Shown here piece after piece: positions 1 to 17,072 of a DNA stretch of 17,235 bases; positions within the stretch are counted from its first letter, which is position 1; each line of letters begins with the position of its first letter. The stretch covers positions 1 through 17,235 of the forward strand of contig JBAXOY010000064.1 of the NCBI GenBank assembly GCA_037133055.1. Reading direction: 5' to 3'. The position numbers and the translations under genes are program-made. The DNA is from Chlamydiota bacterium (lineage in GTDB: Bacteria > Auribacterota > Tritonobacteria > UBA1439). The notes under the pieces are model-generated. The model made no database searches. It was given only the letters and a program-made list of their open reading frames with translations, and was not told the DNA's origin.

Positions 1-1966
<1,966 letters not shown>

Positions 1967-1970
<4 letters not shown>

Positions 1971-2464
1971 TTCCCCGCGCCGCCCAAAAGCTTCGCGAGC
2001 TCCGGCTCGACGTCCCGGCAGTCGCGGCAGACGATCACCCCGTCCTTGCCGACGAGGGTCTTGCTCGGAATGCCCCGAACGCCATAGGCCTTCGCGACCG
2101 CGCCGTCTTCGTCGAGAAGGATCCTGTAGGCGATGTCATACTTGGCGGCGAACGAGGAAACCTTTTTCCCGCTCTCCTCGATAAAGATGCTGAGGAGGAC
2201 GAAATCCCTGTCCTTGTACCGGGCCTCGATCTCTTTCAGTTTCGGGACCGCCGTCCGGCAGTGGGGGCACCACGTGGCGCTGAAGGAGAGGAGCACCACC
2301 TTCCCCTTGAGGTCGCTCAACTTCACCTCCGCGCCTTTTAGGTCCTTCAGGGAAAAGTCGGGCGCTTTGCCGCCGGTCTCCGGCGCGGAGAATCCGTTCG
2401 GACACGTCGTCGCGCCCGTCACGGCTGAGAGTGCGCACACCGCGAGGATGAGTCGAATCTGCAT
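1967..2464 (-). CDS. TlpA/ResA-family thiol-disulfide reductase, exported
   Basis: N-terminal hydrophobic signal; [41 protein letters not shown] cis-Pro loop; GGGGAG RBS. Confidence 0.92.
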
Positions 2465-2477
2465 GGTGCTCCCCCTT

Positions 2478-3188
2478 TCAGATCATGAGGCTGCCGGCGG
2501 TGACCAGGAAATATTCCCCCATCGCGATCAGTATCCACCCGAAGAGATACTTGACCCTTACCATCCAGACGCCCGCGGCGGGAAGGCTCGCGAGGACGCC
2601 GGAGAAGGTCCCGACCAGTATCTGGAGCGTCCCCATCCCCAGGGCAAAGACGAAGAGGAGGCTCGTGCCGAAGACCACGTTCCCCTCGCCGGCCACGTAG
2701 CCGAGGAGGACCGCCAGCACGGGCGCGGTGCAGGGCCCGAGGACAAGCCCCGAGGCGGCGCCCACGAGGAATGCGCCGGCGAGCCCCGCCCGCGGCTTCC
2801 CGGGCCGCATGCCGCTCAAGAACCGCGGCAGGGGAAGCGCGAACACGTCGAACATGGAGAGGCCGAGCAGGATGCAGACGTTCGCGACCGCGAGGTAGGT
2901 CCAGGGACTCGACTGGACCCTCCCGAAAAGGGTCCCCGTGAGCGCGGCGACGCTGCCCAGCACGGTGTAGGTGCACGACATCCCGAGCACGTACACCACG
3001 GAAAGGGAAAAGCCCTTCCACCTTGATCCCCCGCTCTGTCCCCCGATGAACGCCACGGTGATCGGAATGACCGGGTAGACGCAGGGGGTCAGGCTGACGA
3101 GGAGGCCGCCGATGTAGACGGCGAAATACGCCAGGGCCGTCGACCCGTGCAGATAGCTCTCGAGGCCGTTGATGAATTCCTGGATCAC
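2478..3188 (-). CDS. ccdA: CcdA / DsbD-beta-type transmembrane disulfide electron transporter (~236 aa)
   Basis: SLTPCVYPVIP and GPCTAPVL redox motifs, about 6 hydrophobic segments, GVWMVRVKYLFG. Start re-called to GTG 3188, which overlaps the thioredoxin stop (GTGA); the track's extension to 3686 overlaps thioredoxin and ferritin. Confidence 0.92.
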   Translation of the reverse strand: MIQEFINGLESYLHGSTALAYFAVYIGGLLVSLTPCVYPVIPITVAFIGGQSGGSRWKGFSLSVVYVLGMSCTYTVLGSVAALTGTLFGRVQSSPWTYLAVANVCILLGLSMFDVFALPLPRFLSGMRPGKPRAGLAGAFLVGAASGLVLGPCTAPVLAVLLGYVAGEGNVVFGTSLLFVFALGMGTLQILVGTFSGVLASLPAAGVWMVRVKYLFGWILIAMGEYFLVTAGSLMI

Positions 3189-3499
3189 AGTATCCGCTCC
3201 AGGGCCCGCAGGAGTTCGTCCTCGGAGACGTTGCCCGCGAGCCGTGCCTTCTCCTCCCCGTCCCTGAAGAAAAGCACCGCGGGGAGGGCAAGGACGCGGA
3301 GCGTCGAGGCGGTCCGCGCGCAGGCGCTGATATCCACCTTGCCGAACCGCGCCTGCGGGTGCGCCTCCGCGAGCGCCTGCACGCGCGGCGCCACCTTCAG
3401 GCAGACGCCGCACCAGGGGGAGGAAAAGAGGACCACGAAGGGAAGCCTCGGCTCGATCACCTCGCGCGCAAAGTCGGCATCCGTGAGTTCGCGCAGCAT
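3185..3499 (-). CDS. Thioredoxin family protein (WCGVC)
   Basis: 104 aa; LRELTDADFAREV...VVLFSSPWCGVC...FGKVD...LPAVLFFRDGEE thioredoxin pattern; GAAGGA RBS. Confidence 0.88.
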   Translation of the reverse strand: MLRELTDADFAREVIEPRLPFVVLFSSPWCGVCLKVAPRVQALAEAHPQARFGKVDISACARTASTLRVLALPAVLFFRDGEEKARLAGNVSEDELLRALERIL

Positions 3500-3523
3500 G
3501 GCATCCTTCCCCCGGGAGCCGCG

Positions 3524-4048
3524 CTACGCCGCGGCGCCGGGCGCGGCAGGCGGCGGCGTGAAGACGCGCGCGGCGAGCTCGCGGTCGATCATGAAGAGCC
3601 CGCCGGGCGCGTCGCCCATGAGCTTCAGCTTCTTCACAACGTCGTCCGCCGACGCCTCCTCCTCCACCTGCTCGCCCACGAACCACTGGAGAAAGTTGTG
3701 CGTGGCGTGGTCCTCCTCCCGGCCGGCGAGGCTGACAAGATCGTTGATCCAGCCGGTGACCTTCTGCTCGTGGGCGTAGGCCTCCTCAAACACGTTGAGG
3801 GGTGAAGACCACTCCGCGGGGGGGCCGTCGATCGCCGTGAGGGTGACGCGTCCGCCCCGGTCCACGACATAGCCGAAGAACTTCGTCACGTGCACAAGCT
3901 CCTCCTGGACCTGCACCCGCATCCAGTTGGCGAACCCCTTGAGGTTGAGGGATTCGAAATAGGCCGCCATCGCCATGTACAGGTAGGCGGAGTAGAGCTC
4001 GCGGTTGATCTGCGCGTTCAGCGCATTCTGCATCTTCGCCTTGATCAT
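3524..4048 (-). CDS. ftnA: Non-heme ferritin
   Basis: [63 protein letters not shown] ferroxidase motifs; AAGGAGG RBS. Confidence 0.95.
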
Positions 4049-4072
4049 CGTTCCCTCCTTGTTGCGCGCGAT

Positions 4073-4570
4073 TCAGGCCTTCGGCAGCGCGTCCTGCATC
4101 TCCTTCAGTCTCCGCGCGTGCAGGCGTTCCTCCGCGATGATGCGGTCAAGCTGCCGCTTCGTTTCGTCCGACGCGACCCTGCCGCGGCAGGCCTCGTAGA
4201 ACTGCACGCTCCTCTCCTCGACGATCTGCCCGAGCCTCAATGCCTTCCGGGGGCTCTCCAGGGCGACCGCGAGATCCCGGTACGGCGCGAAGATGCCATA
4301 CTCGAGGGAGCTCGCGAGGTCGTCTTCCTCGAACGCGTCCTCTTTCGTCGCCCTGAGCCTCGCGAGTTCGCCCTCAAAGAATTCGAGATGATCGCGCTCC
4401 TGGCTCGCGAGGGAGAGGATTGATCCGCGGGCCGCGGCGGCGGTCATCCTGCCGGCCAGCGCCTCGTAGAATGCCATCCCGTCCCTCTCGATCCTCACGG
4501 CGATCTTGCACGCCTCGAGATCGTCGAAGTCGACGACGACCAGCGCCCCGGACCGCTCCTCTATGCGCAT
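4073..4570 (-). CDS. Rubrerythrin-family (ferritin-like diiron) protein lacking the rubredoxin domain
   Basis: Duplicated pattern AVRIERDGMAFY...QERDH and QIVEERSVQFY...EERLH; GGAGAGG RBS. Confidence 0.85.
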   Translation of the reverse strand: MRIEERSGALVVVDFDDLEACKIAVRIERDGMAFYEALAGRMTAAAARGSILSLASQERDHLEFFEGELARLRATKEDAFEEDDLASSLEYGIFAPYRDLAVALESPRKALRLGQIVEERSVQFYEACRGRVASDETKRQLDRIIAEERLHARRLKEMQDALPKA

Positions 4571-4592
4571 GCGTCCTCTCCCACGGGTCCGC

Positions 4593-4967
4593 TCACGCCG
4601 ACCAGAGCCCGTGCAGGTTGCAAAGCTCGCGCGCGGAGATTTGGGCGGCGGACACGGCGAACTCCGCCTCCGGGCGGTCCCCCGGCTTCAAAAACTGCCG
4701 GTAGGCCTTTCCGTCCGCGATCAGCTCTATCCATTCGATGTAGTGCTTCTCCTCCATCGGGTGGGGGGCGCTCCCCACGCGCACCTTCACGCCGCCGGCG
4801 GTCTTCTCGATCACCGGCACGTGCTTCTCCCGGGAAGCGTCCACCGTGTTCTCGACGAGAAGCTTCATCTCCTGCCCGCAGCAGACCAGTGTCCCCGCCC
4901 CATCGCGGAGCACCTCGACGAGGTTGCCGCACAACTCGCACGTGTGGATCTGGAGCCGCTTTGTCAT
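4593..4967 (-). CDS. dfx: Desulfoferrodoxin (2Fe superoxide reductase)
   Basis: From ATG 4967 (RBS GAGGGAGG): CELCGN..VCCGQ desulforedoxin domain; [17 protein letters not shown] and CNLHG SOR-site residues; 124 aa. Confidence 0.95.
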
Positions 4968-5014
4968 GACGCACCCTCCCTCTCGTCCCCGCGCGTGCTG
5001 CGGGGCACGCACCA

Positions 5015-5042
5015 ATGATAGTGGAATATCGCCGGAACGCAA
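5015..5042 (-). promoter_or_regulatory. Possible sigma70 promoter for the dfx-yyaL transcript
   Basis: Minus strand TTGCGT (5042-5037), 16-bp spacer, TATCAT (5020-5015), in an AT-rich patch. Confidence 0.35.
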
Positions 5043-5207
5043 CCTGATTATTTCATTTTCAATTGACTTTTCGCCGCGGGGAATGGGGATGCGCGACACG
5101 GCGAAGCCCCGGGCCATCACTCTCGGAATAAACGGGGCACGGGGCGAACGGAGCGGGGGCCGCGTCAGACCGCATCGCCGCGGGCGGCACACGCGAAAGG
5201 AAGCTCC

Positions 5208-5609
5208 TCAGTGCGCCGTTTTCGCGCACCTCGGGCACATGCCCTCGAACTCGAGCTTGTGTCCCGTAATGGTGAACTGGGTGGCGCCCCTCGCTTCGCC
5301 CTCGATGTTATCGAAGGCCTTCATCGAAAGGTCCTCGACGCACCCACACTTGTTGCAGCGGATGTGGTAATGGTTCGCCGTCGTGGCGTCGTAGCGGCGC
5401 TGGGTCCCGGCGAGCTCGAGCTTGAGAATCACCCCCCTGCCGGAGAGCGTCTCGAGATTCCGGTACACCGTCCCCAGGCTGACGCGGGGTATGCGCTCAC
5501 GCACCATCCGGTAGAGCTCGTCCGCGGTGGGGTGAGTCACCACCTTCCTGAGCTCCTCGAGGATGAGCTGCCGCTGCCTGGTGATTCTGAGCTTCTGATC
5601 CTGTTTCAT
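5208..5609 (-). CDS. Fur-family transcriptional repressor, PerR-like
   Basis: RITRQR..HPTADELY..SLGTVYRNL..RYD..HYHIRCNKCG.VED..EGMCPRC. There are two CxxC Zn motifs, and Asp at the RYD and VED positions as in PerR. AAGGAG RBS. Confidence 0.92.
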   Translation of the reverse strand: MKQDQKLRITRQRQLILEELRKVVTHPTADELYRMVRERIPRVSLGTVYRNLETLSGRGVILKLELAGTQRRYDATTANHYHIRCNKCGCVEDLSMKAFDNIEGEARGATQFTITGHKLEFEGMCPRCAKTAH

Positions 5610-5624
5610 GCGACTTCTCCTTTA

Positions 5625-5639
5625 TAATAACAATTATCA
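5625..5639. promoter_or_regulatory. Fur/Per-like box 1
   Basis: TAATAACAATTATCA matches TGATAATnATTATCA at 12 of 14 positions; it lies between the -10 and the RBS of the regulator. Confidence 0.7.
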
Positions 5640-5645
5640 AAACTA

Positions 5646-5674
5646 AATATACCCTATGTAAGAATACCTGTCAA
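5646..5674 (-). promoter_or_regulatory. Sigma70 promoter of the perR/fur-like gene
   Basis: Minus strand TTGACA (5674-5669), 17 bp, TATATT (5651-5646). Confidence 0.8.
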
Positions 5675-5686
5675 TAAGAATTATCG
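5672..5686. promoter_or_regulatory. Fur/Per-like box 2 overlapping the -35
   Basis: CAATAAGAATTATCG shares AATAAnAATTATC with box 1 and lies 47 bp from it. Confidence 0.6.
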
Positions 5687-5756
5687 AAAAAGAATCGCGA
5701 GGCCTGAATCTTCATGCGCCCATGTAAGGGCACGCTATGCTACCATACTTCACGCC

Positions 5757-6695
5757 ATGAGCACGAGCACGCTCCTGATGAGGGAGTACACTCGCCGCCT
5801 CAATCTCGCCCTGGACCACATCCGGGAACACCTCGACGGCAACCTCACGGTCGGATCGGTGTCCCGCGCCGCCCTCTTCGGCCCCTTTCATTTCCACCGG
5901 CTCTTCAGCGCCATGACCGGCGAGACGCTCTACAACCACATCCGCCGCATCCGTCTGGAAAAGGCCGCGAATCTCCTCCTTTACTCGCCGGAGCGCTCCG
6001 TCACCGACATCGCGCTCGAGGCCGGCTTCGGCTCGTCCGCCTCGTTCGCGCGGGCGTTCCGCGATCATTTCGGCATGAGCGCCTCCGAATGGCGGGCGTC
6101 GGGGGGGGCGCAGAAAAGCAAGAATCGCAAAGCGAAGAGCAAGGAGGGGAAAGCGGGCGGGAACCGTTCCCGGTATAGTGGTGCCCGTCGACGATCAACA
6201 CCACAACCAGGGAGGTGCGGCATGAAGGTGGAGGTGAAGGAGCTTCCCGCGTACCGCGTCGCGTACGTGAGCAGCAAAAGGGGTTACGAGGGGGATGCGA
6301 TCCACGAGGCGTACGGGACGCTGATGCGCTGGGCGGGGCCGCGCGGGCTCTGCGGGCCTCACACGGAGGTGATCGGCGCGTCGTACGACAACCCGGAGAT
6401 CACGGCCATGGCGAAGTGCCGCTACGACGCGTGCATCTCGATCGGGGACGACGTGAAGCCCGAGGGGCCGGTCTCCGTGAAGAAGTTCCCCGGCGGAAAG
6501 TATGCCGTGTACCGGTACCGCGGCAGGCCACAGGACCTCGGAAAAGTCTTCCAGCAGTTCATGGGAGAATGGTTCCCCTCGAGCGGGTACCAGCCGGGCG
6601 ACGCGCCGTGTCTCGAGTTCTACCACAACGACCCGGACCGGGACCCGAAGGGCGAGGCGACCGCGGACATCTGCATCCCGGTGAAGCCGCTCTGA
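5757..6695 (+). CDS. AraC-family regulator: N-terminal double HTH plus C-terminal GyrI-like effector domain
   Basis: FHFHRLFSAMTGETL..RRIRLEKAA..SVTDIALEAGFGSSASFARAFRDHFGMSASEW (AraC HTH); YDNPEIT..CRYDACI..GGKYAV..WFPSSGY..LEFY..DICIPV (GyrI-like). Confidence 0.93.
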   Translation: MSTSTLLMREYTRRLNLALDHIREHLDGNLTVGSVSRAALFGPFHFHRLFSAMTGETLYNHIRRIRLEKAANLLLYSPERSVTDIALEAGFGSSASFARAFRDHFGMSASEWRASGGAQKSKNRKAKSKEGKAGGNRSRYSGARRRSTPQPGRCGMKVEVKELPAYRVAYVSSKRGYEGDAIHEAYGTLMRWAGPRGLCGPHTEVIGASYDNPEITAMAKCRYDACISIGDDVKPEGPVSVKKFPGGKYAVYRYRGRPQDLGKVFQQFMGEWFPSSGYQPGDAPCLEFYHNDPDRDPKGEATADICIPVKPL

Positions 6696-6713
6696 CGGCG
6701 GCCGCGCACGGGC

Positions 6714-6755
6714 GCCCTCTCCCCTCCCCGGGAGGGGGGAGGGCACTTCTTTTCT
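6714..6755 (+). terminator. Intrinsic terminator hairpin after the araC-like gene
   Basis: GCCCTCTCCCCTCC-CCG-GGAGGGGGGAGGGC stem followed by ACTTCTTTTCT. Confidence 0.65.
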
Positions 6756-6819
6756 CAGGACGATGGGAAACCCGAAGGCGTCAGCACGGAGAGAATACCG
6801 CCCGCGCAGCCATTAGGGT

Positions 6820-6843
6820 GGGGTCAAATCTTTAATCTTGAAT
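6820..6843 (+). repeat. Left inverted repeat GGGGTCAAATCTTTAATCTTGAAT
   Basis: 23/24 match to the reverse complement of 7863-7886; contains the transposase stop codon. Confidence 0.9.
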
Positions 6844-7837
6844 CCTCTATAATGCGATTGCTCACTTCTTCAAATTGCTTTGCGAGCTGCCGGTCCTCCC
6901 GCATCTTGGACCGTAACTTTTTTCTGGCATAGCTCACCGCACTATAATCGATGCCCCCCATCAGCTTCCCGATTTCGTGCTGCGTGAGAAAACAATACCG
7001 ATAGAGAAGCTCCATCAGCATCGCCCTTGCAGTGGACTGTATCCCCTTCCGGCAGAGCGATTCCCTCGTTTCCCCGATAATGGCGCAATACTGTTCGATC
7101 AGTTCCTTTGGCGAGTATCTTTTTCCGAGTTCTCGCGTAGCGGGCTGTTCTCTCCGGGATTTTTCCTCTGGAACCATTTTCTCTTTCACCCAGGCAATGA
7201 ATTCCTTCTCCCCCACAATCCCATGCCCGCGCCCCATTTCCAGAGGACTCCTTATCTTCTTCTCTAGTCCTTCCACGATGAACCGCGCGTACGCATCCCT
7301 GCCCCGCCGTGTGTCCCCGCCGAAGTGAGCGAGAACCTCCTGATAGTCGACGAACTGCTGCTTTTTGCCGATGCCGAGATAGCCCTGAAGACTGCTCTCG
7401 CGATACCCCCAGAGATATTTCCACTTCTCTTCAATCGTCGCATCCTTGAACCTGTCCCCATGCACGGGATTGCTGTGCACATACCTGGAAAGTTCAATGA
7501 GATAGCTGTCCGAATCGACGAGAAACGCCTTGTACCGCCCCTGATACAGGTGCCCTACCCGCCCATGTCTCCGGTTGAACGCCATGGTGTAGGAGATGTT
7601 GAAATGCCTCATAAACTCAGACAAGTTCCCCTCCGCCGTGCGCACCATAAGGTGGAAGTGGTTTGGCATGAGCACATAGACATAGAGAGTAACGCGATAG
7701 GTTTCCAGGGAAAGGGAAAGTGTCTCGAGGAACTTTTGCCGGTCCGCGTTATCGCGGAAGATGGCCCTACGCTCGTTGCCGCGGCAGGTAACGTGGTAGT
7801 ACGCGCCTGGATACTGGATGCGAAGAGGTCTGGCCAT
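6824..7837 (-). CDS. RAYT/TnpA(REP)-like Y1 HUH transposase with C-terminal DnaA_C/TrpR-like HTH
   Basis: From ATG 7837: MARPLRIQYPGAYYHVTCRGNERRAIF..YVLMPNHFHL (HUH)..GHLYQGRYKA..YVHSNP (catalytic Tyr); C-terminal LTQHEIGKLMGGIDYSAVSYARKK; 337 aa. Confidence 0.9.
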   Translation of the reverse strand: MARPLRIQYPGAYYHVTCRGNERRAIFRDNADRQKFLETLSLSLETYRVTLYVYVLMPNHFHLMVRTAEGNLSEFMRHFNISYTMAFNRRHGRVGHLYQGRYKAFLVDSDSYLIELSRYVHSNPVHGDRFKDATIEEKWKYLWGYRESSLQGYLGIGKKQQFVDYQEVLAHFGGDTRRGRDAYARFIVEGLEKKIRSPLEMGRGHGIVGEKEFIAWVKEKMVPEEKSRREQPATRELGKRYSPKELIEQYCAIIGETRESLCRKGIQSTARAMLMELLYRYCFLTQHEIGKLMGGIDYSAVSYARKKLRSKMREDRQLAKQFEEVSNRIIEDSRLKI

Positions 7838-7862
7838 ATAATCCCCCCCGACCCACCCCAAT

Positions 7863-7886
7863 ATTCAATATTAAAGATTTGACCCC
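7863..7886 (-). repeat. Right inverted repeat ATTCAATATTAAAGATTTGACCCC
   Basis: Reverse-complement partner of 6820-6843; contains the metacaspase stop codon. Confidence 0.9.
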
Positions 7887-8680
7887 AAAAGCTCCGAGAA
7901 GACCGCGCGCCGCTTCGCCTCTGCGGGGCCCTCGAGCTGCGGGCGCTGCGTGTAGCCCGCTCCGGCGAGCGACCTTCTCACCCGCGCAATCAGCTCTTCG
8001 TAACTGATCCCCGGGCCGGACGCCTCCAATTCCCGGACCGCGAAATAGCTGAAGGCCCCCCGGGTCGCTCCCGTGAAATCCCCCTCCGAGGCGGGTTCGT
8101 CGTCCGAGGCCGCGCTCAGGAAGACCTCCCTCATCCCCTCCTCGCCGCGACCCAGAAGCCTTCTCTTGAGCGGACTCCGGGAGGTCACGCCGCCGGCAAA
8201 GGCGGCAGGGGGCTTGATGAATCTCGCTTTGCCGCCGGGCAGAATCCGCGTCACCGTGCCCGAGTAGCACGAGTCAGCGATGAAGGTGAAGGCGACGCCG
8301 TCGGGGATCCGGTCGAGGATGGGGCGGAGCTCGTCGTCCGTGATGAGTTTTCCGACATCCGCCTCCCATGGAACGAGCGCCTCGTCCCTCCCGTCCGCCT
8401 CGTCCCTCGCCCCCCTGTCGGGGACCCATGTGCCGTGACCCGAGTAGATGAAGGCGCAGACGTCGCCGCGTCGCGCGCCCGCGACGAGTCCATCGAGCGC
8501 GGCGAGGATGCCGCGCCGCGTCGCCTCCCCGTTGCGCAGCGTCCGCAATTCTCCCCGCGCAAAGCCGAACCGCCCGGCGAGAAGATCGGCCCAGGCGCGC
8601 GCGTCGTTCACGCAGCCGTGAAGATCGTTGTCCCCGCCGCAATAATCGTCAATGCCGATGCAGACCGCTTTCCTGCCCAT
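7871..8680 (-). CDS. Peptidase C14 caspase-like protein (metacaspase), single domain
   Basis: KAVCIGIDDY..LHGCVNDA..ATRRGIL..FIYSGHG (catalytic His)..DEADGRDEALVPW..IADSCYSG (catalytic Cys)..GAFSY..QRPQL. Confidence 0.92.
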   Translation of the reverse strand: MGRKAVCIGIDDYCGGDNDLHGCVNDARAWADLLAGRFGFARGELRTLRNGEATRRGILAALDGLVAGARRGDVCAFIYSGHGTWVPDRGARDEADGRDEALVPWEADVGKLITDDELRPILDRIPDGVAFTFIADSCYSGTVTRILPGGKARFIKPPAAFAGGVTSRSPLKRRLLGRGEEGMREVFLSAASDDEPASEGDFTGATRGAFSYFAVRELEASGPGISYEELIARVRRSLAGAGYTQRPQLEGPAEAKRRAVFSELLGSNL

Positions 8681-8813
8681 GGCTCACCCGTGCCCCCCTT
8701 TTCCGGGGAGGGCGGATTCCCCGACACCCGGCTTTTCCGTGACCGCCCCCGCGATTTCTCCCCTGCCCCGGGTCCCCGCTTCCGGCCGCCGGCGCCGACG
8801 CGCCTTCGTCCCG

Positions 8814-8842
8814 ATACTACACCCCGCGCGGCACCGGCGCAA
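8814..8842 (-). promoter_or_regulatory. Possible sigma70 promoter for the metacaspase
   Basis: Minus strand TTGCGC (8842-8837), 17 bp, TAGTAT (8819-8814). Confidence 0.4.
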
Positions 8843-8896
8843 CATTATTGATGCGGGACGATCCATCACCCCCCCTTCTTCATCCCCCTTCTTCAG

Positions 8897-8925
8897 TTGC
8901 TTTTTACCCGCCGTTCCCCTATACT
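8897..8925 (+). promoter_or_regulatory. Sigma70 promoter for pta and the methionine synthase
   Basis: TTGCTT (8897-8902), 17 bp, TATACT (8920-8925). Confidence 0.6.
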
Positions 8926-8980
8926 GCCGGGGTCGTTGTCGGGCGCTTCGCCGCGCCCGGTTCCGCGAGGAGATTCGTGC

Positions 8981-9991
8981 ATGCCCGAGAGAAGCGCGTT
9001 CCTGGAAGAGGTGTTTGCCAGGGCGAGGAAGGAGCCGAAGCGGCTCGTCCTCCCCGAGGGGCACGACGAGCGCATCGTCAGGGCGGCCGGCATCATCGCG
9101 CGGATGGGGCTCGCCCACCCCATCCTCCTCGGCAACCGCGACATGATCCTCGCCCTGATACGGTCGTCGGGGGAGAGCGCCGAGGGGATCGAGATCGTCG
9201 ACCTCCATGACAACCCCAGGAGGGAGGAGTACGCGAAGACCTTCTTCGAGCTCCGCCGGCACAAGGGCGTCACACTCGAACAGGCCCGCGAGACGATGGC
9301 CTCCTGGATATACTTCGGCACCATGATGGTCTACAAGGGCGAGGCGGACTGCCTCGTCTCCGGCGCGACGCACTCGACGCGCGACACGGTCATGCCCGCG
9401 CTCCGGATCATCAAGTGCAAGAAGGGCTGCTCCCTCGTCTCGAGCCTCTTCTTCATGGTCCTCGGCAGGGACGTCTTCGCCTTCGCCGACTGCGGCGTGG
9501 TCGAGAACCCCACGAGCGATCAGCTCGCGGAGATCGCCGTCGAGACCACCGAGACGGCAATGCACTTCGGCATCCCCCCGATCATCGCGCTCCTCTCCTA
9601 CTCCACGAAAGGGTCCGCCGCGGGGCCGCTCACGAAAAAGGTGACCGACGCGGTCGAGATCGCGAAGGTAAAGATCGCCCGGCGCTTCCCGGACAACAGG
9701 GAGATCGTGATCGACGGCGAACTCCAGGTGGACGCGGCGATCGTCCCGGCGGTCGCGGCGCGGAAGGCCGCGGGGAGCCCTGTGCAGGGGAGGGCGCGGG
9801 TGCTGATCTTCCCCGACCTCAACAGCGGCAACATCGCCTACAAGCTCGTCCAGCGCCTCGCGAAGGCCGAGGCCTACGGCCCCATCCTCCAGGGCCTCGC
9901 GAAACCCGTGAACGACCTCTCCCGCGGCTGCGTCGCCGACGACGTGGTCGGGGTCGCCGCCGTCACCGTCGTCCAGGCGCAGGGCGCCTGA
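8981..9991 (+). CDS. pta: Phosphate acetyltransferase (short, class I)
   Basis: From ATG 8981 (RBS GAGGAG): RLVLPEG..VSGATHST..FADCG..LLSYSTKGS..DGELQVDAA..LIFPDLNSGNIAYKL..GPILQGLAKPVNDLSRGC. Confidence 0.95.
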   Translation: MPERSAFLEEVFARARKEPKRLVLPEGHDERIVRAAGIIARMGLAHPILLGNRDMILALIRSSGESAEGIEIVDLHDNPRREEYAKTFFELRRHKGVTLEQARETMASWIYFGTMMVYKGEADCLVSGATHSTRDTVMPALRIIKCKKGCSLVSSLFFMVLGRDVFAFADCGVVENPTSDQLAEIAVETTETAMHFGIPPIIALLSYSTKGSAAGPLTKKVTDAVEIAKVKIARRFPDNREIVIDGELQVDAAIVPAVAARKAAGSPVQGRARVLIFPDLNSGNIAYKLVQRLAKAEAYGPILQGLAKPVNDLSRGCVADDVVGVAAVTVVQAQGA

Positions 9992-10007
9992 CGCTTTCGG
10001 AGCGAAG

Positions 10008-11051
10008 ATGAATTTCATTCCTTCCTGCAGGGCCACCGCGGTCGGCAGCATGCCGTACAGGGACGCGGGCGAGGCGGTCGATCGCGTCCTCGCGGCGTTC
10101 CCGGAGATCCCCGCCTGGCCCCAGCTCCCCAACCGGTCGTTTCTCGAGAACATGTACGTGCAGTACAGCGAGGGGCTCCCCTGCCTCGTCGTGGACCGGG
10201 AGAAGGAAAGGGTGTACTTCGACACCTCGGGCGACACGATGGCGGAGATCGAGGCGTTCTACGGGAAGGTGATCGAGGCGAACCTGGACGCATTCGCGAT
10301 CAGCCGCGAATACGCCCCGGGCTTCCACCGTCTCGTCGAGGCGCTGGCCGCCGCGCCCCCCGCGGGCCTCGCCTGCGTGAAGGGCCAGATCGTCGGCCCC
10401 GTCAGCATGGGGCTCACGGTGACCGACCAGGACAAGCGCGCGATCCTCTACCACGACGAGCTGATGGACGCGGTGCTGAAGTCCATCTCGATGAAGGCGG
10501 CATGGCAGGTCCGGGAGCTGAAGAGTGTGTGCCCGAACGTGATGATCTGGCTCGACGAGCCGTACCTCGCGAGCTTCGGCTCGGCCTACGTGAGCCTCTC
10601 GGAGAAGCAGGTCCTCTCGCTCATCGGCGAGGTGACGCAGGCCATCCACGACGCCGGCGCGCTCGCGGGGATCCACTGCTGCGGGAACACTGACTGGTCG
10701 CTCCTCATGAAGGCGGGTCTCGACATCATCAACTTCGACGCCTACGGCTACTTCACGGGGATGACCTGCTATCCGGAGGCGCTGAAATCCTTCATAGGTG
10801 AAGGCCGCATCCTCGCCCTCGGCCTCGTCCCCACCTCGGACAAGATCCGGGAGGAGACGGTCGAGAGCCTTGCCGCAAAGCTCGAGGAACGCCTGGGCGC
10901 ATTGGCCCAAAAGACCGGACTCGGGACAAAGGAGATCATGGCGCAGTGTCTCCTCACGCCGAGTTGCGGCACGGGGAGCCTCTCGCCGGAGCTCACCGGC
11001 AGGATACTCGAAACGGTCAGCGGGCTCTCCCGTCGAATGCGGCGGGCGTGA
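10008..11051 (+). CDS. Cobalamin-independent 'core' methionine synthase (MetE C-terminal barrel only; MesB-like)
   Basis: TAVGSMP..PAWPQLP..KGQIVGPVS..DEPYL..GIHCCGNTDW..NFDAY..GLVPT..LLTPSCG; Zn-ligand-type HCC and PSCG motifs; 347 aa with no N-terminal folate-binding half. Confidence 0.75.
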   Translation: MNFIPSCRATAVGSMPYRDAGEAVDRVLAAFPEIPAWPQLPNRSFLENMYVQYSEGLPCLVVDREKERVYFDTSGDTMAEIEAFYGKVIEANLDAFAISREYAPGFHRLVEALAAAPPAGLACVKGQIVGPVSMGLTVTDQDKRAILYHDELMDAVLKSISMKAAWQVRELKSVCPNVMIWLDEPYLASFGSAYVSLSEKQVLSLIGEVTQAIHDAGALAGIHCCGNTDWSLLMKAGLDIINFDAYGYFTGMTCYPEALKSFIGEGRILALGLVPTSDKIREETVESLAAKLEERLGALAQKTGLGTKEIMAQCLLTPSCGTGSLSPELTGRILETVSGLSRRMRRA

Positions 11052-11068
11052 TCGCCGCTCCCCCATAC

Positions 11069-11117
11069 CGCTTCATGCGCTTCGCGCGCTTCACGCGCAT
11101 TGCACGATTCATGCGCT
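11069..11117 (+). repeat. Degenerate 9-bp tandem repeat, about 5.5 copies (CGCTTCAYG-like)
   Basis: cgcttcatg cgcttcgcg cgcttcacg cgcattgca cgattcatg cgct. Confidence 0.75.
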
Positions 11118-11125
11118 CCCCGTGC

Positions 11126-11147
11126 AGGGCACACTTAAGTGTGCCCT
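11126..11147. repeat. Perfect 22-bp palindrome AGGGCACACTTAAGTGTGCCCT (REP-like or terminator hairpin)
   Basis: Exact self-complementarity; no U-tract. Confidence 0.85.
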
Positions 11148-11210
11148 ATAGCTGTGGATAACTTTTGCTTTTCCCCGCCCTGTTTGTCCTTTACTATTGT
11201 CGCACGGATC

Positions 11211-11240
11211 TGCTATATTATGTAGTAGTGATTATCACTA
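11211..11240 (+). promoter_or_regulatory. Extended -10 promoter and palindromic operator upstream of cooC
   Basis: TGcTATATT (11211-11219), then a perfect 7-1-7 TAGTGAT-T-ATCACTA (11226-11240) ending 2 nt before the ATG. Confidence 0.6.
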
Positions 11241-11242
11241 AC

Positions 11243-11989
11243 ATGAAAATAGCCATCACGGGAAAGGGCGGCGTGGGGAAGTCAACACTGAGCGCCCTCC
11301 TCTGCAGGGAGTTCGCCCGGGAAGGGCATGCGGTGCTCGCGGTCGACGCCGACCCCGACGCCAATCTCGCGTCGGCGCTCGGGTTTCCCGACGCGGAGAC
11401 CATCAAGCCCGTCTCCGAGCTCAAGGACCTCATCAGGGAGCGCGCCGGAGACGGGGGCGGCCTCGTGCGGCTGAACCCGCGCGTGGACGACATCCCCTCG
11501 ACGCACAGCGCCGTGCACGACGGAGTGAAGCTGATCGTCATGGGCGGCATCACCCGCGCCGGGAGCGGCTGCGCGTGCCCGGCGAACGTATTCCTGAAAG
11601 AGCTTATGCGCCACATCCTCCTCGGATCGGGGGAGATCGTCGTGATGGACATGGAGGCGGGGATCGAGCACCTTGGCCGGGCGACGGCCGACAGCGTCGA
11701 CGTGCTCGTCGCGGTCGCGGAGCCGTCGGCGATGAGCATCGGCTCGGCGAAAAAGATCGCCCGCATGGCGGGGGAGATGGGGATCAGGAGGATCGCCGCC
11801 GTCGCGAACAAGACCGCCTCCGAAGACGAATCCGCCGCGGTGGCGCGGGAGCTCGCCCCGTTGGAGTTTCTCGGCGCCCTTCCGTTCAGCCGGGCGCTCC
11901 GCGACGCCGCCCTGCGGCGCGGCGCGGCGCACGGGGACCCCGCGCTCGCGGCAGCGGTGTCCCGCATCGCCCGCCTGATCGCCGGGTGA
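11243..11989 (+). CDS. cooC: CO dehydrogenase nickel-insertion ATPase CooC
   Basis: MKIAITGKGGVGKST (deviant Walker A), VDADPDANL, GSGCACP (CxC Ni site), DMEAGIEHLGR, VANK. Start re-called to ATG 11243. Confidence 0.95.
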   Translation: MKIAITGKGGVGKSTLSALLCREFAREGHAVLAVDADPDANLASALGFPDAETIKPVSELKDLIRERAGDGGGLVRLNPRVDDIPSTHSAVHDGVKLIVMGGITRAGSGCACPANVFLKELMRHILLGSGEIVVMDMEAGIEHLGRATADSVDVLVAVAEPSAMSIGSAKKIARMAGEMGIRRIAAVANKTASEDESAAVARELAPLEFLGALPFSRALRDAALRRGAAHGDPALAAAVSRIARLIAG

Positions 11990-12010
11990 GCGCGCGCGCC
12001 CCATATATCA

Positions 12011-12040
12011 TTGGCACGGGTTTCGGCGAGGGGGTATAAT
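12011..12040 (+). promoter_or_regulatory. Sigma70 promoter directly upstream of cooS
   Basis: TTGGCA (12011-12016), 18 bp, TATAAT (12035-12040). Confidence 0.65.
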
Positions 12041-12092
12041 CGGCCGCGCCGGCTTTTCCACTCCGCGCGCGGCGTGACAGGGGAATGAAACC

Positions 12093-14006
12093 ATGAAACA
12101 GACGGTCGATCGGGCGGCGCAAAAGGTGCTGGATTCCACGATTGGGCGGCAGGCGAAAACGGTGTGGGACCGGAGCGAGGCAATGGAGCCGCGGTGCGGC
12201 TTCGGAGACCTGGGAATCTGCTGCACCATCTGCCTCCAGGGCCCGTGCCGCATCGACCCGTTCGGGCCCCCGGACCAGAAGGGGTGCTGCGGGGCGGACG
12301 CCGACACGATCGCCGCGCGGAACTTCATCCGCGCCATCGCCGCGGGCTGCGCGGCGCACTCCGACCACGGCAGGGACATCGCCTCCACGCTCCTCCACGC
12401 CGCCAAGGGCGGCACGGGGGGATTCCGGATCACCGACGCTGCGAAGCTCAACGCGATTGCCGCCGAGCTGGGGATTCCCGCGGAGGGCCGCTCCCCGGAA
12501 CAGGTCGCCGAGAAGGTCGCCCTCGCATGCCTTGAGCAGTTCGCCCGCTCCCCGCTCCCGTTCATGCAGCGGGCCCCCGAGCCGCTCAAGAAGAAATGGA
12601 GCCAGGCGACCCTCTGGCCGAAGGGGATCGACCGCGAGGTCGTCGAGGTCCTCCACCGGACGCACGAGGGAGTCGACGCCGACTACCGCAACCTGATCCT
12701 CTCCGGCATCCGCGCGGCGCTCGCGGACGGCTGGGGCGGGTCCATGCTCGCCACCGAATTGAGCGACATCCTCTTCGGCTCGCCCTCCCCCATCAGGTCG
12801 AAGGCGAACCTCGGCGTCCTCAAGGCCGACGAGGTGAACATCGTCGTCCACGGGCACGAGCCCGCGCTCTCGGACATGGTCGCCCGCGCCTCTCGGGAGG
12901 GCGAGCTCCTCGACTACGCCCGGCACAAGGGGGCGAAGGGGATCAACGTCTGCGGCCTCTGCTGCACCTCGATCGAGCTGCTGATGCGGCAGGGCTACCC
13001 GGCGCTGGGGAACTTCCTCAGCCAGGAGCTCGCGATCCTCACGGGCGCGGTGGACCTGATGGTCGTGGACGTGCAGTGCGTCATGCCGGGGATCCAGGAC
13101 ATGGCGAAATGCTTCCACACCGAGCTCCTCACCACCTCGCCCAAGGCGAAGATGCCCGGCGTGAACCATCTCGAGTTCGAGGAGTCGAAGGCGCATGCGC
13201 TCGCGCACGAGATCGTCCGCCGGGCGGTGGACGCCTACACCCGCAGGCGTCCGGAACGCGTCAACATCCCCGACGAGGTGATGGACCTCGTCGCGGGATT
13301 CACCGTCGAGAACATCTTCACCAACCTCGGCGGCACCTTCCGCTCCACCTTCCGCCCGCTGAACGACGCCATCATCTCGGGACGCCTGCGCGGCGTCGCG
13401 GCCGTCATCGGCTGCAACAACGCCAAGGTGACGCAGGACGAGGGGCACCTCGCCATGACGAGGAGGCTCCTCGCCGCCGACGTGCTCGTGGTGCAGACCG
13501 GCTGCTCGGCCACGGCGTGCGCCAAGGAGGGGTTCCTCCGCCCCGAGGCCGCGCTCGAGCTCGCGGGCGAGGGGCTCCGCGAGATCTGCGAGACCGTCGG
13601 GATCCCGCCCGTCATCCACATGGGCTCGTGCGTGGACAATTCCCGGGTCTTGAGGGCGCTCTGCGAGATGGTGAAGGAGGGCGGCCTCGGCGGGGACATC
13701 AGCGACCTGCCCGTCGCCGCGGCGGCCCCCGAGGCGATGAGCGAGAAGGCCGTCTCCATCGGCTGCTACGCGGTCGGCTCCGGCGTCTTCACGGTCTTCT
13801 CCCCGCCCCCGCGCGTCGAGGGGAGCCGCAACGTCGTCGAGTTCCTCACCCGCGGGATCGAGGATGTCACCGGGGGCAAATTCTGTTTCGAGCGCGACCC
13901 GGTGAAAGGGGCCGAGGCGATGATCGCCCACATGGATGCGAAGAGAAAGGCCCTCGGCCTGAGCCCCATGATGTACAAAGAGAAGATATACAAAGAGAAA
14001 AAGTAG
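12093..14006 (+). CDS. cooS: Anaerobic Ni,Fe carbon monoxide dehydrogenase catalytic subunit
   Basis: CGFGDLGICCTICLQGPC..CG (D and B clusters); AAHSDH; C-cluster ligand motifs HGHEP, GLCCT, DVQC, GCNN, TGC and GSCVDNSR; EAMSEKA catalytic Lys. Confidence 0.97.
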   Translation: MKQTVDRAAQKVLDSTIGRQAKTVWDRSEAMEPRCGFGDLGICCTICLQGPCRIDPFGPPDQKGCCGADADTIAARNFIRAIAAGCAAHSDHGRDIASTLLHAAKGGTGGFRITDAAKLNAIAAELGIPAEGRSPEQVAEKVALACLEQFARSPLPFMQRAPEPLKKKWSQATLWPKGIDREVVEVLHRTHEGVDADYRNLILSGIRAALADGWGGSMLATELSDILFGSPSPIRSKANLGVLKADEVNIVVHGHEPALSDMVARASREGELLDYARHKGAKGINVCGLCCTSIELLMRQGYPALGNFLSQELAILTGAVDLMVVDVQCVMPGIQDMAKCFHTELLTTSPKAKMPGVNHLEFEESKAHALAHEIVRRAVDAYTRRRPERVNIPDEVMDLVAGFTVENIFTNLGGTFRSTFRPLNDAIISGRLRGVAAVIGCNNAKVTQDEGHLAMTRRLLAADVLVVQTGCSATACAKEGFLRPEAALELAGEGLREICETVGIPPVIHMGSCVDNSRVLRALCEMVKEGGLGGDISDLPVAAAAPEAMSEKAVSIGCYAVGSGVFTVFSPPPRVEGSRNVVEFLTRGIEDVTGGKFCFERDPVKGAEAMIAHMDAKRKALGLSPMMYKEKIYKEKK

Positions 14007-14042
14007 CCGCCGGCCGGAACGGGCGGGGGCGGAGAGCATCCG

Positions 14043-14552
14043 ATGAAGGGTGTCATCGTCATAGACGTCGAAAAATGCCTCGGCTGCAGGAGCTGCCAGG
14101 TGCAGTGCGCGCTGGAGCATTCCCACTCGAAGAACCTCGTCGAGGCGATCCGGGAGCGGCCCGCGCCGAGGGCGCGGGTGAGGGTCGAGGCGGTGGACGG
14201 CCTCGCGGTCCCGCTCCAGTGCCGCCACTGCGAGGATGCGCCCTGCGTCAGGGTCTGCCCGTCTCACGCGCTGGAAAAGCCGGGGATCGACGACCCGGTG
14301 TCGGTCACGAACGAGCGCTGCATCGGGTGCAGTCTCTGCATCCTCGCGTGCCCGTTCGGGGTGATCGACATGGACGTCACGGGCAAAGCGATCGTGAACT
14401 GCGACCTGTGCGTGGAGAGGCTGAAAAATGACCGGCTCCCCGCCTGCGTGGAAGGGTGCCCCACGAAGGCGCTCCAGTTCAAGAGTTTGAAGGATGTATC
14501 CTCGGGAAAACGCAGGAAATACCTCACCGCCATCGCGCGGGGCGACAGGTAG
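14043..14552 (+). CDS. cooF: CooF-type 4x[4Fe-4S] electron transfer protein
   Basis: CLGCRSCQVQC, CRHCEDAPCVRVCP, CIGCSLCILACP, CDLC..PACVEGCP; directly after cooS. Confidence 0.9.
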   Translation: MKGVIVIDVEKCLGCRSCQVQCALEHSHSKNLVEAIRERPAPRARVRVEAVDGLAVPLQCRHCEDAPCVRVCPSHALEKPGIDDPVSVTNERCIGCSLCILACPFGVIDMDVTGKAIVNCDLCVERLKNDRLPACVEGCPTKALQFKSLKDVSSGKRRKYLTAIARGDR

Positions 14553-14580
14553 CGCGCCCCCGCCCACCGAAAGGCTCCGG

Positions 14581-15081
14581 ATGCACGCCGCCGACATCAT
14601 CAGGGAGACGGACGAGATCGTCGATCGTTACGGCGCCCGGATCGCGGGCTCGATCGGCATGCTGCAGGATATCCAGGCCCGCCTGGGCTATCTGCCGAGG
14701 GAGGCGCTCACCCGCATGGCGGAGAGGATCGAGGTCCCCCTGAGCCGGATCTTCGGCCTCGCGACTTTTTACCGGGCCTTCAGCCTCAAGCCCCGCGGGA
14801 AGCATCACCTCTGCGTCTGCATGGGCACCGCCTGCCACGTCCGCGGCGCGCCGGGGCTCGTGGACGAGGTGGAGAGAAAACTCGGCGTCAAGCCCGGGGA
14901 GACCACGGACGACAACGCCTTCACCCTCGATGCGGTGAACTGCCTTGGCGCGTGCGCGCTGGGCCCCCTGATGACCATCGACGGGGAGTACTACGGGAAG
15001 ATGACGCCCGGGAAGGTGGAGCCGGTCCTGAAGAAATACCGGAAAACCGTTTCACCACGAAGGCATGAAGGAAAAAAATGA
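14581..15081 (+). CDS. HydC/NuoE-like (BfuC) [2Fe-2S] subunit
   Basis: LQDIQARLGYLP..LATFYRAFSLKPRGKH..VCMGTACHVRGA..VNCLGACALGP. Start re-called to ATG 14581. Confidence 0.92.
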   Translation: MHAADIIRETDEIVDRYGARIAGSIGMLQDIQARLGYLPREALTRMAERIEVPLSRIFGLATFYRAFSLKPRGKHHLCVCMGTACHVRGAPGLVDEVERKLGVKPGETTDDNAFTLDAVNCLGACALGPLMTIDGEYYGKMTPGKVEPVLKKYRKTVSPRRHEGKK

Positions 15082-15085
15082 CGGG

Positions 15086-15173
15086 GGGACGCAGATGAAC
15101 GCAGATCGTCAGGATAGACAGGATACGTCGTCGTATCTGCGTGAATCCTTACGCTCCTGACAATCTGCGTCCC
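15086..15173. repeat. 88-bp imperfect palindrome built from ACGCAGAT/CAGGAT units
   Basis: Outer arms GGGACGCAGAT / ATCTGCGTCCC and a central GATACG-TCGT-CGTATC share the same centre. Confidence 0.8.
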
Positions 15174-15190
15174 GACGTTGAAGCGTTGAC

Positions 15191-17068
15191 GTGGAATGCC
15201 GAATGAAGACCGCCGTGGACAGGATCGCCACCGTTGCCGATCTCGAGGCGCTGCAGAAATCCCTCGCGGCCGGGCGCGACCCCTCGAAGCCCTGCGTCGC
15301 CGTCTGCGCGGGGACGGGATGCTCGGCGTCGGGCGGTGCGCGGGTGGCCGATGCCTTCAGGGCGGAGATCGCGGCGCGGGGCCTCCAGGCCGCGGTCGAC
15401 ATCCGGACGACGGGATGCCACGGGTTCTGCGAGCGGGGCCCTCTCGTGGTGATCCACCCGCGGGGAATTTTTTACCAGAAGGTCTCTCCGGACGATGTCG
15501 CGGAGATCGTCTCCCGGACGGTCGGCGAGGGCCGCGTGATCGACCGCCTGCTCTACGTCGACCCGGCGACCGGGGAGAAAATAGTCCACGAGAACGAGGT
15601 CCCGTTCTACCGCGCGCAGACGAGGCTCATCCTCGGCGCCAACGGCAGGATCGACCCCACCCGCATCGAGGATTATATCGAGGGGGGCGGGTACCGCGCG
15701 CTCGCGAAGGCGCTTTTTTCGATGACGCCGCAGGGCGTCGTCGACGAGATCGCGGCGTCGGGACTTCGGGGGCGCGGGGGGGGCGGCTACCCGACGGGGA
15801 GGAAGTGGGACTCCTGCCGGAAGGCGGAGGGGGATGTCAAATACGTGATCTGCAACGCCGACGAGGGCGACCCCGGCGCATTCCAGGACCGGAGCCTCAT
15901 CGAGGGAAATCCGCACCGCGTGATCGAGGGGATGCTCATCGGCGGGTACGCGGTCGGCGCCCGGGAGGGGTACATCTACGTCCGCAACGAGTATCCCCTG
16001 GCCGTGAAGCACATCGGGATCGCGCTCGAGCAGGCACGCGCCCGGGGGCTCCTCGGCGAAAACATCCTCGGCTCCGGTTTTTCCTTCGACATCACGGTAA
16101 ACCGCGGCGGCGGGGCGTTCGTCTGCGGAGAGTCGAGCGCGCTCATGGCCTCGCTGGAGGGCAGGCTCGGGGAGCCCCGGTTCAAGCACGTGCACGCGAC
16201 CGAGAAGGGCCTCTGGGACAGGCCCACCGTCCTGAACAACGTCAAGACGTGGGCCACGGTCGGCGTGATACTGCGCGAGGGCGCGGCGTGGTTCGCGAAG
16301 ATAGGGACCGAAAAGAGCACGGGCACCATGCTCTTCTCGCTCGTCGGGAAGATCAACAACACCGGCCTGGTCGAGGTGCCCATGGGGATCACGCTGCGCG
16401 AGCTTGTCTTCGGAATCGGGGGAGGGATCCCCGGCGAGAAACAGTTCAAGGCGGTCCAGACCGGGGGGCCCTCGGGGGGATGCATCCCCGCCTCCCTGCT
16501 CCATCTCCCCGTGGATTACGACAGCCTCACCGCGGCGGGGTCCATGATGGGCTCGGGCAGCCTCATCGTCATGGACGAGGACGCCTGCATGGTCAACATC
16601 GCCCGGTATTTCCTCTCCTTCACCATGGAGGAGTCGTGCGGGAAGTGCACCCCGTGCCGGGAGGGGATCGAGCAGATGCTCGGGATACTCGACGCGATCA
16701 CCCGGGGCGAGGCGGGCGAGGGCGACCTCGGGCTCCTCGAGGAGCTCGGGACGATGGTGGGGCAGACGTCCCTGTGCGCCCTCGGCGGCTCCGCGCCCAA
16801 CCCGATCCTGAGCACCCTGCGGTATTTCAGGGACGAGTACCTCGCGCACATCAGGGAGAAGAGGTGCCCCGCCGGCGTCTGCCGCGCCCTGATCCGCTAT
16901 TCGATCGACGCGGCGAAATGCACCGGGTGCGGGGCCTGCGTGAAGGCGTGTCCCGAGGCCGCGATCTCGGGCGAGAAGAAAAAGCCGCACCTGCTGGACG
17001 CGGCGAAGTGCGTCACATGCGGGCTCTGCCGCGACGCGTGCAGATTCGACGCGGTCACCGTGGGATAA
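15191..17068 (+). CDS. HydB/NuoF-like (BfuB) FMN/NAD(P)-binding subunit, long form (start GTG 15191 or ATG 15203)
   Basis: N-terminal CAGTGC..GCHGFC [2Fe-2S] domain; GLRGRGGGGYPTG; CNADEGDPGA; SLBB GGPSGGC; ESCGKCTPCREG..SLCALG; AHIREKRCPAGVC; C-terminal 2x[4Fe-4S]. Confidence 0.93.
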   Translation: MECRMKTAVDRIATVADLEALQKSLAAGRDPSKPCVAVCAGTGCSASGGARVADAFRAEIAARGLQAAVDIRTTGCHGFCERGPLVVIHPRGIFYQKVSPDDVAEIVSRTVGEGRVIDRLLYVDPATGEKIVHENEVPFYRAQTRLILGANGRIDPTRIEDYIEGGGYRALAKALFSMTPQGVVDEIAASGLRGRGGGGYPTGRKWDSCRKAEGDVKYVICNADEGDPGAFQDRSLIEGNPHRVIEGMLIGGYAVGAREGYIYVRNEYPLAVKHIGIALEQARARGLLGENILGSGFSFDITVNRGGGAFVCGESSALMASLEGRLGEPRFKHVHATEKGLWDRPTVLNNVKTWATVGVILREGAAWFAKIGTEKSTGTMLFSLVGKINNTGLVEVPMGITLRELVFGIGGGIPGEKQFKAVQTGGPSGGCIPASLLHLPVDYDSLTAAGSMMGSGSLIVMDEDACMVNIARYFLSFTMEESCGKCTPCREGIEQMLGILDAITRGEAGEGDLGLLEELGTMVGQTSLCALGGSAPNPILSTLRYFRDEYLAHIREKRCPAGVCRALIRYSIDAAKCTGCGACVKACPEAAISGEKKKPHLLDAAKCVTCGLCRDACRFDAVTVG

Positions 17069-17072
17069 GGCG

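Follow-up and report, generated by a model that had tools for sequence, protein, structure and literature searches.

Promoter-like elements in the linker-coding DNA of AraC-GyrI regulator genes and a predicted stand-alone GyrI-like product

Bacteria can obtain a drug sensor and a drug sponge from one gene. TipAL/TipAS of Streptomyces lividans and AlbAL/AlbAS of Klebsiella oxytoca are described, in the accessible parts of the papers, as products of autoregulated genes that give a DNA-binding sensor plus a short drug-sequestering isoform (PMC7762955, PMC6078987), an arrangement resembling the one proposed below. The two proteins are made from two alternative start codons and the gene's own promoter is activated. 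A gene-internal promoter that gives a shorter protein is reported for an AraC-family regulator, VirF of Shigella (VirF30/VirF21), in the available text of PMC5101355; VirF21 is made from a leaderless mRNA, is without the N-terminal segment and represses virF. Among operators, the class II sites of Rob, a protein with the same domain order as the regulator considered here, are described as bipartite, with an A site GCAC and a B site CAAA over the -35 (PMC9178005, in part), and the forward box of Rob, MarA, SoxS and RamA class II promoters is given as centered within -36 to -55 (PMC12052159, in part). Rob from which the GyrI domain has been removed is reported to activate with no inducer present (PMC6440114, in part). 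The two-domain and GyrI-only forms represented by STM3175 and E. coli YgiV both raise albicidin tolerance, and autoregulation of STM3175 was suggested by its authors, the site being unmapped in the portion of the paper covered (PMC10414762). One gene giving sensor and sponge (TipA, AlbA) and a promoter within a gene (virF) are thus already known from these sources. In the literature searched, mostly the main text of non-subscription articles, with the available text of the AsfR and Caf1R papers included, we found no description of an operator-bearing promoter inside the linker of an AraC-GyrI regulator.

We analyzed a window of 17,235 nucleotides (GCA_037133055.1, contig JBAXOY010000064.1, positions 1 to 17,235), in which a first-pass annotation had proposed that the linker of such a regulator conceals an operator, a promoter and a ribosome-binding site. 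The observation of these linker elements is confirmed and the interpretation placed on it is supported by the comparisons below. We give a probability of about 0.7 to the reading that the linker DNA is a conserved promoter layout, likely producing a short transcript for a 157-aa GyrI-like domain and probably activated when the full-length protein binds within its own gene.

The regulator gene and its surroundings

The gene at 5757..6695 (+) encodes a 312-aa regulator of the AraC/XylS HTH plus GyrI-like type. The N-terminal double HTH matches Pfam HTH_18 at residues 37-114 (PF12833, E=1e-21) together with PF00165, and the C-terminal part has a GyrI-like fold (PF06445, E=1e-37, residues 156-310; Foldseek match to 1JYH, rmsd 2.2 A), the sole GyrI-like match across the whole genome. 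No Pfam match to a MerR or TipAS domain was obtained in the regulator. Linker residues 127-152 have pLDDT values below 50 in the structure model and the first strand of the GyrI-like domain begins at residue 159. Position 1 of the Pfam GyrI-like profile falls on residue 156, the internal Met encoded by the ATG at 6222, in agreement with the earlier statement that this ATG stands where the domain starts. By both sequence and fold the closest solved protein is STM3175 (7R3W). The albicidin-binding proteins STM3175 and YgiV are described as having a Phe at the base of the pocket (Phe265 in STM3175), whereas the regulator has Glu287, a Glu in 133 of 138 homologs, and its ligand therefore probably differs from that of STM3175. 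In the accessible part of the report on Cass2, an acidic pocket residue goes with the binding of cationic drugs (PMC3048380).

The full-length start at 5757 has no Shine-Dalgarno sequence (pairing +2.2 kcal/mol). A predicted extended -10 element, TG-n-TACCAT (5738..5746, +), 10 nt 5' of the full-length ATG, would likely give a weak, nearly leaderless full-length transcript; five family relatives (L003-L007) have a similar extended -10 element 6-10 nt 5' of the regulator start. A leaderless full-length start was rejected as a family rule, since it was found in only 23 of 87 box genes, compared with a coding-DNA control that is no fair match. The one metatranscriptome that contained the region (X17) gave one contig of 167 nt, at 5996-6162, and none in the GyrI part, although assembled contigs cannot show transcription starts.

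Past the stop codon lies a terminator-like hairpin with a T-rich tail (6714..6754, +; -37.1 kcal/mol for 6700-6760), which may also be a small repeat because a similar hairpin occurs at four places in the genome. It is followed by an IS200-like transposase gene on the opposite strand. As the hairpin and this gene follow, the 157-aa open reading frame is the only evident product of a linker promoter in this genome. The transposase (IS200-like, Y1; 6824-7861, -) is lower in GC and has a weak DnaA-C-like HTH tail, a short flanking sequence (about 6820-6852) recurs in other contigs of the runs, and the transposase occupies the place of the trmO-like gene run of the relatives. In two of these relatives (G002 and G007) the genes behind the regulator are trmO-like, a second GyrI-like one and a third. 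At the loci L202 (193-2679) and L203 (1267-2500, -), from two close relatives, the second GyrI-like protein, encoded after the trmO-like gene, has a hydrophobic N-terminus and may be exported; the third open reading frame behind the L202 regulator we take to be transglutaminase-like. TrmO-like genes are near the regulator in 10 distinct loci.

Divergent from the regulator, 1967-5609 (-) encodes Fur/PerR-family, rubrerythrin-like, ferritin, thioredoxin and TlpA-like redoxin proteins, plus open reading frames that are presumably desulfoferrodoxin-like and CcdA/DsbD-like. A link of the regulator to this oxidative-stress operon was considered and found unsupported; the upstream DNA differs in relatives. 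A near-consensus sigma-70 promoter (TTGACA-17-TATATT) lies at 5620-5674 (-), and an AT-rich site near 5621-5640 has what we take to be a resemblance to a PerR/Fur box, probably autoregulating the fur-like gene. Elsewhere in the window are a caspase-domain (Peptidase_C14) protein at 7871-8680 (-) and, at 11243-17068 (+), a CooC-like ATPase and an anaerobic CO dehydrogenase (both from Pfam) with a ferredoxin-like open reading frame and NuoE/NuoF-like bifurcating subunits read from the open reading frames.

Promoter-like elements in the linker and their conservation as DNA

Two operator-like boxes of the form GCAA-N8-AAGC lie 21 bp apart on the forward strand of the linker and resemble Rob/MarA class II sites: a distal box (6118..6133) in the codons Ser-Lys-Asn-Arg-Lys-Ala and a proximal box (6139..6154, a matrix match) with its second element over the -35 position (6151-6156). 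The -10 hexamer TATAGT (6174..6179, +) lies in the Tyr-Ser codons at a distance of 35 bp from the proximal-box G. Further downstream, the Shine-Dalgarno sequence GGAGGT (6211..6216, +; pairing -12.4 kcal/mol) is 5 nt 5' of the internal ATG of the predicted short isoform (6222..6695, +), a 157-aa stand-alone GyrI-like domain that covers positions 1-155 of the 155 of the Pfam profile. A transcription start at about 6186 (6184..6188, +), and hence a leader of about 36 nt, is predicted because starts in two published tables are at an offset of +47 from the box G by hand count.

The first-pass annotation had placed all of these elements correctly (AGCAAG at 6117-6122 and 6138-6143, TATAGT at 6174-6179, GGAGGT at 6211-6216 and the in-frame ATG at 6222), and the contrast that it drew between a strong internal Shine-Dalgarno sequence and none at 5757 is borne out by the pairing energies of -12.4 and +2.2 kcal/mol. 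It had described the repeat as a direct AGCAAG repeat of 21-bp period; the positions and period stand, but the unit is larger and bipartite. Its likening of the site to AraC/RhaS direct-repeat operators fared similarly in that the boxes are tandem at 21 bp but are of the Rob/MarA bipartite type rather than a hexamer repeat.

A repeated hexamer with 21-bp period is by itself common (1.58 per kb of genome), and the pattern of two boxes and a -10 hexamer is found once in the 2.99-Mb genome, at the linker. With a weight matrix trained on 91 homologs of <60% identity the linker site was the top genome-wide match at 32.9 bits, versus 23.0 bits for the runner-up and maxima of 22.9 and 16.2 bits in two shuffles. 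A wider regulon was sought in the genome and rejected, because the next matches (23.0, 22.6 and 22.4 bits) are at the shuffle maximum and are not before plausible genes. A simple sigma-70 scan did not list the linker promoter, consistent with the poor -35 noted earlier, a property shared by the homologs, in which the -35 position has three or fewer of the six consensus bases in 90 of 96. The proximal box is forward, bipartite, overlaps the -35 and is at a fixed distance from the -10, its center being about -40 from the predicted start. In the window and in the homolog set the A site is GCAA, not the GCAC of the Rob/MarA class; the linker box is a candidate for a related but distinct operator, tied to the regulator by its co-occurrence with AraC-GyrI genes.

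The homolog set was built from at least 191 loci among the matches listed and is a sample of one subfamily, the search pattern having come from the HTH helix, within an AraC-GyrI regulator group of 2437 protein matches. Twenty loci were dropped: a duplicate of the window, 17 whose matches were partial or weak, and two with a stop inside the match. This left 171 genes and 138 representatives of <80% identity. The homologs are related to each other and p-values overstate their independence. The linker box is present in 114 of the 138 genes. YAnnnT lies at an offset of exactly 35 bp from the last-box G in 96 of those 114, whereas any other offset gives at most 8; the remaining 18 are without YAnnnT at the offset by this strict rule. 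The sixth base of the -10 is a silent third codon position, and given YA it is T in 96 of 98 genes compared with 425 of 2178 after Tyr or His elsewhere. Among representatives of <55% identity, the silent T was found in 39/39.

Codon usage in the linker was then compared with that in the domains, with residues picked from the protein sequence alone. The codon AGC encodes 175 of the 209 linker serines that precede Lys or Asn, compared with 26 of 100 in the domains. For Arg, CGC is used in 112/163 versus 35/93, and high-GC genes encode the Lys of [SRG][KN]xxK by AAA in 73/76 versus 63/367. Box density is 11.0 per kb in the linker and 0.15 per kb in the domains, and Ser, Arg and Gly replace one another in the linker via NGC codons. 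The linker is conserved as DNA rather than as protein. The expectation that AGC would be kept in place of free TCN usage was thus upheld, as were those of a fixed box-to-(-10) spacing and a conserved Shine-Dalgarno-ATG; each refuting condition of the first-pass annotation that is open to computation came out in its favor, and in one homolog an internal transcription start is mapped at the predicted offset. Among the 96 genes with a -10, a strict count gives one box in 5, two in 44 and three in 47, in 21-bp steps, and a second GCAA is 21 bp upstream of the proximal box in 91.

Between the -10 and the GyrI domain, 90 of the 96 genes have an in-frame ATG, which in 69 follows a strong Shine-Dalgarno sequence; of the six genes without one, three have GTG or TTG after a Shine-Dalgarno sequence, and the same-genus relative L008 has GTG at the internal-start position. 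The first ATG after the -10 has Shine-Dalgarno pairing of -7 kcal/mol or better in 75/103 homologs, versus 52/618 control ATGs, and Met makes up 107 of 2096 residues after the -10 versus 21 of 2836 before it. This conserved Shine-Dalgarno-ATG at the domain boundary is a candidate for an internal start of the TipA/AlbA kind, which would give the ligand-binding domain alone. In a held-out set an internal site of >18 bits was found in only 11 of 24 new loci, and three others had an external site. No natural split genes were found among the collected loci, the stops in L098 and L170 being outside the linker. Carriers of the layout belong to what we take to be Myxococcota, Gemmatimonadota, Acidobacteriota, Spirochaetota, Chloroflexota, Bacteroidota, Bacillota and Deinococcota, with cyanobacterial and proteobacterial members. 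It is also present in Vibrio sp. THAF191d and Aeromonas caviae.

Promoters of Bacteroidota are described as TAnnTTTG, with no Shine-Dalgarno sites, in the portion of PMC7366714 that was available. In the first set YAnnTTT occupied the -10 offset in 4 of 10 Bacteroidota genes versus 1 of 47 other named genes, and a strong Shine-Dalgarno sequence was present in 2 of 10 versus 31 of 41. All five held-out Bacteroidia genes have the internal site, with the exact TAnnTTTG at the offset in 4/5; each has in-frame ATGs and none has a strong Shine-Dalgarno sequence. By its sequence, the element in Bacteroidia takes that phylum's own promoter motif.

The element outside the coding sequence and in published start-site tables

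A composite element of >19 bits was found outside the gene in 14 of the 24 representatives that lack a linker box and in one of the 114 that have it, the linker match of that one being spurious. The exclusion is not absolute, since the held-out locus L227 has both an internal and an external site. In six loci the element is directly before the regulator gene (autoregulation type), and several of these genes still have a Shine-Dalgarno-ATG ahead of the GyrI domain, which is the TipA-like design. In twelve loci it is before another gene. Of ten targets scanned, five are GyrI-only, two TrmO-like, one an acyltransferase/peptidase and one of the glyoxalase family, with one unmatched; all five GyrI-looking targets tested were GyrI-only genes (5/5). 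A quick FastTree, rooted at the midpoint, was made from 40 of the 96 internal-promoter genes, 15 others and the 5 solo proteins. In this tree each solo GyrI group is sister to the GyrI domains of the regulators next to it (support 0.92) and nested among internal-promoter genes, and the sequences suggest that in one lineage duplication split the regulator and the GyrI-only product into two genes. The motif was not found upstream of ygiV of E. coli K-12 or at two Photobacterium GyrI-only genes. In a Bacillus locus (L197:1529-1600) a single box and a strong -10 lie in the gene with no in-frame ATG, and the gene about 20 nt after the stop may be the promoter target; that gene is presumably serine-hydrolase-like.

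Two homologs with published transcription starts are CD630_31940 of C. difficile 630 and BT_1904 of Bacteroides thetaiotaomicron, both of which we take to have GyrI domains. The available portion of the C. difficile table classes TSS_1968 as Internal in CD630_31940 (PMC8237595, supplementary file 1). It is 393 nt past the start implied by the primary transcription start and its 191-nt leader, and the upstream DNA, read by eye, shows the end of an AraC HTH and then a single box, with TACAAT at offset 35 and transcription beginning at 47. The authors did not assign TSS_1968 to SigA in the part of the paper covered. For BT_1904, an 858-nt AraC regulator gene, the primary start lies at offset 47 from the same box, with TAnnTTTG at 35 (PMC7366714, supplementary file 3, in part). 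In the same file BT_4495, a small hypothetical gene and a candidate target of BT_1904, has the box, starts at offsets 47 and 49 and a -7 element one base further. Behind CD630_31940 lies a gene described as UvrA-type (PMC8144104, in part), for which no start of its own was seen in the part of the C. difficile table covered. Of 116 B. cereus-group single-box genes, which are similar to that of C. difficile, only 1 encodes a Met downstream of the -10. Given these two observations TSS_1968 may be the start for the downstream gene and not for an isoform; what it proves is that a homolog has an internal promoter, not that an isoform is made. The Burkholderia cenocepacia and agrobacteria start-site tables, probed with six words apiece, gave no convincing match among the matches listed.

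Proposed circuit, rival readings and known systems

In the circuit that we favor, a low level of the sensor would be made from the weak extended -10 just before 5757, as suggested by the five family relatives. On binding a toxic small molecule the full-length protein would occupy the tandem boxes and turn on the internal promoter in the manner of Rob/MarA class II activation, the proximal box taking the place of the missing -35, to give a short transcript. Translated from its strong Shine-Dalgarno sequence, the GyrI-only protein would accumulate, sequester or inactivate the ligand and also damp the signal. Since the HTH is encoded upstream of the boxes, induction would amplify the effector and not the sensor. 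The corresponding transcript of relatives likely extends to downstream defense genes as well. The GyrI-only, TrmO-like, glyoxalase-family and UvrA-type targets hint at defense against toxic small molecules.

Three other explanations were weighed. The internal promoter may be real and mainly for downstream genes, with the Shine-Dalgarno-ATG only keeping the transcript translated or the short protein incidental, and with the element in the window a leftover of a lost operon. Genes of same-genus and same-family relatives do run on into trmO-like, second GyrI-like and third genes, trmO-like genes are found in 13 loci (10 distinct), the internal Met is missing in B. cereus-group genes and the C. 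difficile downstream gene is without a listed start in the part of the table covered. However, a Shine-Dalgarno-led reading frame is right behind the stop in only 23 of 107 box genes whereas the ATG is kept in 90/96, all elements are intact here despite the hairpin and opposite-strand transposase that follow, and in one lineage a separate gene preceded by this promoter encodes the GyrI-only product. We regard this explanation as unlikely, although the promoter of some relatives probably drives downstream genes as well, or these alone, since the G002 and G007 gene runs, the UvrA-type gene with no listed start and the B. cereus-group genes without Met all indicate that it can. The earlier proposal of a one-gene circuit stands for this genome, but in close relatives a run of same-strand genes follows the regulator, and the version of the B. 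cereus group is without the internal Met.

Less probable still, the boxes may be repressive, the protein acting as a roadblock in its own gene or blocking a constitutive internal promoter until released by ligand. The proximal box does overlap the -35 position, negative autoregulation has an AraC-family precedent in VirF21 according to the available text of PMC5101355, and basal starts are seen under standard growth conditions in the C. difficile and B. thetaiotaomicron tables (as far as covered), but a -35 that is non-consensus in 90/96, a fixed forward orientation and spacing that fit class II activation and the same geometry before separate genes speak against repression. Very little weight is left for the linker being conserved as protein, a basic and flexible tether of which the DNA pattern would be a by-product. 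Although the boxes are in one frame in 257/260 cases and the linker is rich in Lys and Arg, synonymous-site constraint largely refutes this explanation, and it also runs against the Ser/Arg/Gly interchange via NGC codons, the same motif in non-coding DNA, the phylum-specific promoter switch in Bacteroidia and the disorder of the linker in the model.

Beyond the promoter layout, we hold it somewhat better than an even bet that AraC-GyrI genes of many phyla are self-contained sensor-effector circuits, in which the full-length protein binds tandem linker operators and switches on its C-terminal half alone as a toxin sponge. The linker would then be a promoter kept open-frame by selection, retuned to the host sigma factor and in one lineage split by duplication into a regulator gene and a GyrI-only gene. 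If true, this would define an operator and a first target for a large uncharacterized regulator group, a dual-coded linker under strong DNA-level selection and a second product missed by standard annotation; deletion or recoding of the linker would remove a promoter. The motif would also help to identify ligands and regulons (GyrI-only, TrmO-like, glyoxalase-family and UvrA-type genes).

The proposed circuit would be a transcription-level version of the TipA/AlbA sponge strategy, with the effector amplified without the sensor. TipA and AlbA have a MerR HTH and another effector fold, whereas the regulator described here has an AraC HTH and would work like these proteins without being a member of their group. 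They use alternative start codons, whereas here a dedicated promoter and a putative operator are inside the coding sequence. In contrast to VirF21, the predicted short product is the ligand-binding domain, it has a strong Shine-Dalgarno sequence and tandem boxes are at the internal promoter. The bipartite box and its position are like those of Rob, MarA, SoxS and RamA sites, but the A element is GCAA, two or three tandem boxes at 21 bp are usual (91/96), the site is within the regulator's own gene and no wider regulon was found in the genome.
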